The notes under the pieces were generated by a model that had not been told where the DNA came from, searched no databases, and was given only the letters and a program-made list of their open reading frames with translations. A stretch of 64,000 nucleotides of DNA from the NCBI RefSeq assembly GCF_030013205.1, contig NZ_CP122648.1; one strand, written 5' to 3'. Shown here in pieces: positions 24,011 to 25,630 of this stretch. This DNA is from Escherichia coli (GTDB lineage Bacteria > Pseudomonadota > Gammaproteobacteria > Enterobacterales > Enterobacteriaceae). The translations under genes and the position numbers were made by a program. Position 1 is the first letter of the stretch; every line of letters begins with the position of its first letter.

Positions 24011-24421
24011 GACTCCTCCTGATTATTAGCTCTTTTCAGGACATTTGGTATTTGGCTGAATACGCGTTTCGTTATACGTCGTGGTAATAACAACGGCTAA
24101 ACCTGTCGTAAACTGGCACTCTTTACCCACCTGGGTGGAGGTATACACTTTGGTGCCTTCCTTATACGTTAGAGAAACACCTTCCACTAAGGTTTTATCA
24201 TTCACCATAGAACCCGCTGCCGCGCCAACAGCTCCGCCGCCAACTGCACCTGCCGTCGTTCCGGAATTGCTGCCAGACCCGACGTTGTGGCCAATAACAC
24301 CGCCAGCGACTGCACCAATAAGCGCGCCGAAGGCTTGTGCGTTTCGTTTATTTTGGGAGTTGTCTAGGTGATGCTGCCAACTTACTGATTTAGTGTATGA
24401 TGGTGTTTTTGAGGTGCTCCA

Positions 24422-24697
24422 GTGGCTTCTGTTTCTATCAGCTGTCCCTCCTGTTCAGCTACTGACGGGGTGGTGCGTAACGGCAAAAGCACCGCCGGAC
24501 ATCAGCGCTATCTCTGCTCTCACTGCCGTAAAACATGGCAACTACAGTTCACTTACGCCGCCTCTCAGCCCGGTACGCACCAGAAAATCATTGATATGGC
24601 CATGAATGGCGTCGGATGTCGCGCCAGTGCACGCATTATTGGCGTTGGCCTCAACACGATTTTCCGCCACTTAAAAAACTCAGGCCGCAGTCGGTAA
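24422..24697 (+). CDS. insA: IS1 InsA
   Basis: 91-aa zinc-finger/HTH protein [42 protein letters not shown]... Confidence 0.9.
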
Positions 24698-25119
24698 CCT
24701 CGCGCATACAACCGGGCAGTGATGTGATTGTCTGCGCTGAAATGGACGAACAGTGGGGCTACGTCGGTGCTAAATCACGTCAGCGCTGGCTGTTTTACGC
24801 GTATGACAGGATGCGGAGGACGGTTGTGGCGCACGTCTTCGGTGAACGCACTCTGGCCACACTGGAGCGTCTTCTGAGCCTGCTGTCGGCCTTTGAGGTC
24901 GTGGTATGGATGACGGATGGCTGGCCGCTGTATGAATCACGCCTGAAGGGAAAGCTGCACGTTATCAGCAAGCGTTATACTCAGCGCATTGAGCGGCATA
25001 ACCTGAATCTGAGACAACATCTGGCAAGGCTGGGACGGAAGTCACTGTCGTTCTCAAAATCGGTGGAGCTGCATGACAAGGTCATCGGGCATTATCTGAA
25101 CATAAAACACTATCAGTAA
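24616..25119 (+). CDS. insB: IS1 InsB frame (expressed as InsAB' by -1 frameshifting)
   Basis: 167-aa ORF overlapping insA in the -1 frame. Confidence 0.85.
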
Positions 25120-25630
25120 GTTGGAGTCATTACCGTTGTCTACGGCAACTTTTGCGGGAAGAATGGAAATAATATTAACGGTTTTAGTTTCTTGTTTGGT
25201 ATTCAGTTGATCGGTTTGATAAACATCGGCGGCATGATCATCAGCATTTGACTGGCATCCTGCCAGAGTGAATGACGCTAACATTACCACAGGCAGAAGA
25301 CATTTTTTAAATTTCATCACTATTCCTTGTTATACACATTACGAAAAATAAGACATTTAAGATCATCAAAAGAGGAAAGTAAATGTATTGCGTATTAAGG
25401 AATAGATTAAATTTATTAAAATTCATGTGGAAAATAATTTATAAAAATACATCATTAAAACATATGTATTAATTTTATATTTATTTCGCAGCCAAACAGG
25501 ATAAACATCAGTCAGGACAAAGACGTAAAATTTAAGATGAAAGAATATCTGCCGCTTTGATAATCCCAAAGAGCAAAAGCATCCGACAGCGAGGTGCCGT
25601 TATGTTCTGTGAAAGTGGAGAAGGTAACCG

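Follow-up and report, generated by a model that had tools for sequence, protein, structure and literature searches.

In the 64,000-nucleotide stretch of Escherichia coli DNA analysed here (hereafter, the window), the lipoprotein gene yfgH is interrupted by a complete IS1 element. This arrangement almost certainly goes back to one simple IS1 transposition into yfgH in the ancestor of a small, swine-associated E. coli clade: the element is structurally complete, its target-site duplication is perfect, the flanks are unchanged since insertion, and the event is found in seven independently assembled genomes. IS1 would have entered between codons 62 and 63 of yfgH, duplicating an 8-bp target, GTTGTCTA, and leaving its transposase frame antisense to the gene. 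The yfgH::IS1 insertion as such can already be found, with annotation, in public genomes and has little significance beyond strain annotation; the useful outcome of our analysis is its correction to a clean, undecayed insertion.

A complete IS1 element resides in yfgH

Reading of positions 23700–25700 of the window and scripted determination of the element's boundaries placed a 768-bp IS1 at positions 24367–25134 on the + strand, in agreement with the RefSeq annotation of identical loci and with an initial sequence-only reading of the window, which had described a complete 768-bp IS1 with 23-bp inverted repeats at both ends inside yfgH. The left inverted repeat (IRL, GGTGATGCTGCCAACTTACTGAT; 24367–24389, + strand) and the right inverted repeat (IRR, GGTAATGACTCCAACTTACTGAT when read inward; 25112–25134, − strand) are identical at 19 of 23 positions. 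Position 19 of the window IRR is a C, where the IRR of IS1A has a T. A promoter scan returned a promoter-like site overlapping IRL (24374–24401, + strand), consistent with the insA promoter of IS1 being situated in IRL.

Both insA (91 aa, GTG start; 24422–24697, + strand) and the overlapping insB′ frame, which extends to position 25119, are open. An A6C slippery motif (TTAAAAAACTC; 24671–24681, + strand) starts at 24671, in phase with insA (frame 0), and translation with a −1 programmed frameshift at this motif gave a 232-aa InsAB′ transposase without a stop (24422–25119, + strand, joining 24422–24676 and 24676–25119). InsAB′ scored 242.8 bits against the NCBIfam model NF033558 (transpos_IS1, "IS1 family transposase"; cutoff 100) and additionally matched the IS1/IS1595 zinc-binding N-terminal domain. 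RefSeq lists an "IS1 family transposase, programmed frameshift" with coordinates equivalent to those of insAB′ on identical loci. Element length, imperfect inverted repeats of about 23 bp (starting GGTGATG and GGTAATG), a frameshifted InsAB′, the model score and a duplication in the 8–9-bp range all place the element in the IS1 family. It resembles IS1A and IS1B of E. coli K-12 in its 768-bp length, its GGT-starting repeats of about 23 bp, the insA and insB′ frames, the A6C motif, the 232-aa InsAB′ and the short target duplication, while RefSeq names IS1 elements of the window type with the generic "IS1 family". All 768 bp are 100% identical to many plasmid-borne copies from E. coli, several of them from pigs, and from Shigella flexneri, whereas IS1A copies in the yfgI–pdeF interval of other E. 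coli strains (loci L003 and L004) differ from the window element at 50 of 768 positions (6.5%). With insA, insB′, the A6C motif and both inverted repeats intact, the copy looks functional as judged from its sequence. IS1 20-mers were absent from the 64-kb window outside positions 24367–25134, and a composite transposon or recombination via a second IS1 was rejected on these grounds.

Excision of IS1 restores an intact yfgH frame

The interrupted gene lies on the − strand between 25320 and 24026, as the sequence-only reading had correctly delimited it for a glycine-zipper lipoprotein, and is split by IS1 after codon 62, with insAB′ antisense to yfgH. The 5′ fragment (25135–25320, − strand) comprises exactly 62 codons (MMKFKKCLLPVVMLASFTLAGCQSN...AKVAVDN), covering the signal peptide, the lipobox LAGC and a linker, and is listed in RefSeq as a pseudogene "missing C-terminus". 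Codons 63–172 and the stop, encoding the glycine-zipper 2TM and the C-terminal domain, make up the 3′ fragment (24026–24358, − strand), a pseudogene in RefSeq under the description [quoted passage not shown]. Read from the junction, 24366 to 24026 (− strand) constitutes one open frame down to the stop (DNSQNKRNAQAFGALIGAVAGGVIGHNVG...PEKS and stop; frame 2).

Removal of IS1 together with one copy of the 8-bp repeat gave a 519-nt open reading frame encoding 172 aa, with no stop, frameshift or indel, while removal of 9 bp instead of the 8-bp copy broke the yfgH frame. No base distinguishes the restored gene from the intact yfgH of E. coli strain 7/2 (WP_014639259.1), and A12V, a signal-peptide change, is the one difference between its product and WP_001295476.1. 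With the restored 825-nt locus, including flanks, as query against 5,426 complete E. coli genomes, single-piece matches of 100% identity were obtained in many genomes with intact yfgH. Alignments of the restored gene with the more distant intact yfgH alleles of LR-03 and ZH177 were likewise gapless, with 10–11 substitutions that change one or two amino acids. The gene order yfgI-yfgH-yfgG-pdeF is retained, the neighbours in the window being those found in strain 7/2.

Intact YfgH is a SlyB-like, glycine-zipper 2TM outer-membrane lipoprotein, for which reading of the restored sequence indicates a lipoprotein signal peptide and lipobox cysteine (MMKFKKCLLPVVMLASFTLAGC). The glycine-zipper 2TM domain (Pfam PF05433) covers residues 73–114 of the restored protein (E = 7e-08), and the IS1 break lies 10 codons upstream of it. 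In the window, the signal peptide and lipobox thus have no connection to the zipper or the C-terminal domain; a functional YfgH would call for an uninterrupted frame, and this frame is split. The window yfgH is a pseudogene of the YfgH family and not a functional member.

The target-site duplication is perfect and the insertion undecayed

The 20 bases to the left of IS1 read TTTATTTTGGGAGTTGTCTA and the 20 bases to the right read GTTGTCTACGGCAACTTTTG; at the junctions, the left flank ends in ...GGGAGTTGTCTA ahead of IS1, and IS1 is followed by GTTGTCTACGG. The two ends of the element are directly bordered by an exact repeat of at most 8 bp, GTTGTCTA, present as a left copy at 24359–24366 and a right copy at 25135–25142, for which the probability of a chance occurrence is about 4^-8. 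Uninterrupted alleles bear exactly one GTTGTCTA at the insertion point, as in the empty site of LR-03 and ZH177, GGGAGTTGTCTACGGCAAC. In BLAST comparisons with the strain 7/2 locus (L007), the window flanks map to positions 3463–4467 and 4460–8825, and their overlap, 4460–4467, is exactly the 8-bp duplication. Given the single GTTGTCTA at the empty site, the target duplication is certain.

IS1 usually duplicates 9 bp of its target, with 8 bp a documented minority outcome. Among other insertions nearby, typed by a simple IS1-end pattern that left out L009 and L011, the ends of which it did not detect, five were flanked by duplications of 9, 9, 9, 9 and 8 bp; a further one lacked a duplication and was associated with a truncated pdeF. 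With one 8-bp case among these five, and in agreement with this background, the 8-bp duplication in yfgH is a normal, if less frequent, result of IS1 transposition.

These observations bear on an alternative history, in which the insertion would be older, with a duplication that has lost a T, a 3′ fragment that has acquired a further frameshift and a pseudogene that is progressively decaying. The sequence-only reading had favoured such continued decay after insertion, based on an imperfect duplication with a left flank of GTGTCTA and on an additional frame change near 24300–24302. Neither lesion exists, and both errors arose because a single T was dropped at the line break between 24359 and 24360 (g at 24359, ttgtcta at 24360–24366). 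The transcription of the left flank was the one argument for progressive decay, but the left flank in fact equals the right, the 3′ remnant is a single open frame, and neither fragment shows a substitution or an indel relative to the intact allele of strain 7/2. We therefore attach next to no probability to an older, decaying insertion. Halves that are identical to an intact allele, in combination with a perfect duplication, instead indicate a recent, undecayed insertion.

The yfgH::IS1 allele is probably shared by descent among swine isolates

A search for the 1,601-bp junction region, including IS1, among the 5,426 complete E. coli genomes returned the same arrangement in seven of them, each time as one aligned piece with 99.9–100% identity over 1,601 bp. 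All seven carriers (K_EC180, ETEC1748, ETEC4067, ETEC4069, ETEC4070, ETEC4071 and ETEC4079) are of swine origin. K_EC180 is a Stx2e-encoding isolate from a weaner pig, the PacBio assembly of which was polished with Illumina reads in a separate study (PMC8071739); a literature search returned no paper describing the ETEC40xx or ETEC1748 genomes. RefSeq annotates the seven loci as two pseudogene halves plus an IS1 family transposase, with coordinates exactly equivalent to those in the window (in K_EC180, locus tags IGX36_RS06685, IGX36_RS06690 and IGX36_RS06695). The annotated allele agrees with that of the window in position, orientation, IS1 isoform and flanks, and no difference was seen at the locus itself.

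As IS1 is present at 19–22 places per chromosome and repeats can be misassembled, a copy could conceivably have been misplaced into yfgH during assembly. However, the empty site has a single copy of the 8-bp sequence, and a misplaced repeat would not have duplicated it precisely. The junctions also recur identically in seven complete and separate assemblies, among them that of K_EC180, which derives from an independent PacBio and Illumina data set. An assembly artefact is therefore very improbable.

Similarity among the carriers extends well beyond the insertion. ETEC4079 matched a 24.5-kb query from the window at 100% in a single piece, and in the other six carriers the region is 100% identical, with only rearrangements or deletions inside the adjacent prophage setting them apart; the differences between K_EC180 and the window are likewise confined to this prophage. 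A prophage and pdeF region common to the carriers at 100% identity argues for common descent, and a single insertion inherited by descent would be the parsimonious reading of this sequence pattern. The yfgH::IS1 allele marks a small clade of swine ETEC/STEC and could serve as a lineage marker.

IS1 has inserted repeatedly in the yfgI–pdeF interval

Independent IS1 insertions were encountered in the same 3-kb neighbourhood of other genomes: in yfgH itself (CB209), in the yfgH–yfgG spacer (LR-03, ZH177), upstream of pdeF (ECA64, C51) and inside pdeF (KOL-1, XYEH3934, 10034940-2). At least eight such independent insertions lie within about 1.5 kb of the window site (loci L002, L003, L004 and L008–L012), and 34 of the 5,426 genomes harbour IS1 near the locus, counted where a single place covers 80% or more of the 1,601-bp query. 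On this sequence evidence, the yfgI–pdeF interval may be a locally favoured target region for IS1. The CB209 insertion interrupts the same gene as that in the window and in the same IS1 orientation, but it is situated 82 bp away (L007 coordinate 4385 versus 4467), is flanked by a 9-bp duplication, GACCCGACG, and involves a different IS1 isoform (32 of 768 positions differ).

Recurrence in yfgH raises the question of selection. The molecular event would be identical to that proposed above and only its evolutionary reading would change: inactivation of yfgH, or a polar reduction of yfgI, would have been adaptive in the swine lineage, for example through outer-membrane remodelling, rather than having hitchhiked neutrally. 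The second, independent yfgH insertion in CB209 and the pseudogene state of the neighbouring pdeF in the swine lineage point in this direction. Yet only two independent yfgH insertions were found among 5,426 genomes, the IS1 sites are scattered over the whole yfgH–pdeF interval, including intergenic positions, as fits local target availability, and deletion of yfgH has been reported to be harmful under envelope stress. We consider selected loss unlikely. Similarly improbable, and slightly more so, is the broader proposition that yfgH::IS1, possibly together with loss of pdeF, represents a selected, convergent adaptation in swine ETEC/STEC and CB209 rather than a neutral accident; if true, it would imply that altered outer-membrane lipid and protein homeostasis benefits colonisation or resistance. 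We favour a recent single transposition that is probably neutral, or at most mildly deleterious, in this niche.

Predicted consequences for YfgH and yfgI

Since IS1 cuts off the glycine-zipper 2TM and C-terminal domains from the lipidated N-terminal linker, YfgH function is predicted to be lost in the window allele, and the insertion would have left yfgH as a null allele. A truncated product of 88 aa might still be made, consisting of 62 YfgH residues and 26 residues encoded by the IRR end of IS1 (25054–25320, − strand). This predicted product would keep the signal peptide, the lipobox and the 40-residue linker and would have neither the glycine zipper nor the C-terminal domain.

A recent preprint (bioRxiv 10.64898/2025.12.22.696046) reports that cells deleted for yfgH are more sensitive to detergent combined with a chelator, have a more permeable outer membrane and lose outer-membrane proteins under stress, and it predicts YfgH to form SlyB-like rings. 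Carriers of yfgH::IS1 should show the outer-membrane stress sensitivity described for the deletion. In light of the preprint's focus on outer-membrane stability, the swine carriers, as predicted natural yfgH nulls, could act as natural-knockout controls.

The gene downstream of yfgH, yfgI (DUF5384; 23471–24010, − strand, from the ORF list and RefSeq), follows at a distance of 15 bp on the same strand, and a polar effect of IS1 on yfgI is therefore plausible from the gene arrangement; transcription of yfgI from the yfgH promoter would probably be reduced. We also considered a hybrid promoter reading outward from IRL into yfgI. A promoter scan detected no promoter-like − strand site at the junction, and inspection of the sequence downstream of TTGGCA in IRL revealed no acceptable −10 hexamer at a spacing of 16–18 nt, leaving an IRL-driven expression of yfgI unsupported.

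Neighbouring features in the window

Two further genes in the window are inactivated. The cyclic-di-GMP phosphodiesterase gene pdeF (yfgF; 26174–28416, + strand) is a pseudogene with lesions at about 26216 and at 27304, which, set against the intact pdeF of strain 7/2, are the loss of 1 bp from a G-run at codon 15 and a C-to-T change that turns codon 378 into a stop; RefSeq describes pdeF of K_EC180 as "frameshifted; internal stop". The third gene to be inactivated, after yfgH and pdeF, is the hydrogenase 4 subunit gene hyfD (48907–50346, − strand), in which codon 148 is an internal stop; its K_EC180 counterpart carries a pseudogene annotation.

A prophage occupies positions 1–23361, between the 3′ end of guaA and yfgI, and encodes RecT, replication protein P, holins, a GH19 endolysin and a DUF2514 protein; its integrase lies just upstream of the window, as seen in K_EC180. 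From 23362, a position in the final 15 bp of guaA, homology to the prophage-free strain 7/2 sets in again. The 6.1 kb at 4142–10276 of the window are replaced in K_EC180 by about 450 bp, annotated as ead/Ea22-like pseudogene fragments. In the K_EC180 region that corresponds to a more distal part of the window, an IS200C-type tnpA is annotated between bamC and purC (L006 25503–25961); by transfer, it would fall at about 57500–57960 (+ strand) of the window.

Just downstream of yfgI, on the chromosome side and about 40 bp from the prophage junction, a hairpin with a 12-bp stem between A- and T-runs (AAAACCCTCTGTTACTACAGAGGGTTTT) is found at 23403–23430. This hairpin is probably the bidirectional terminator common to guaA and yfgI.
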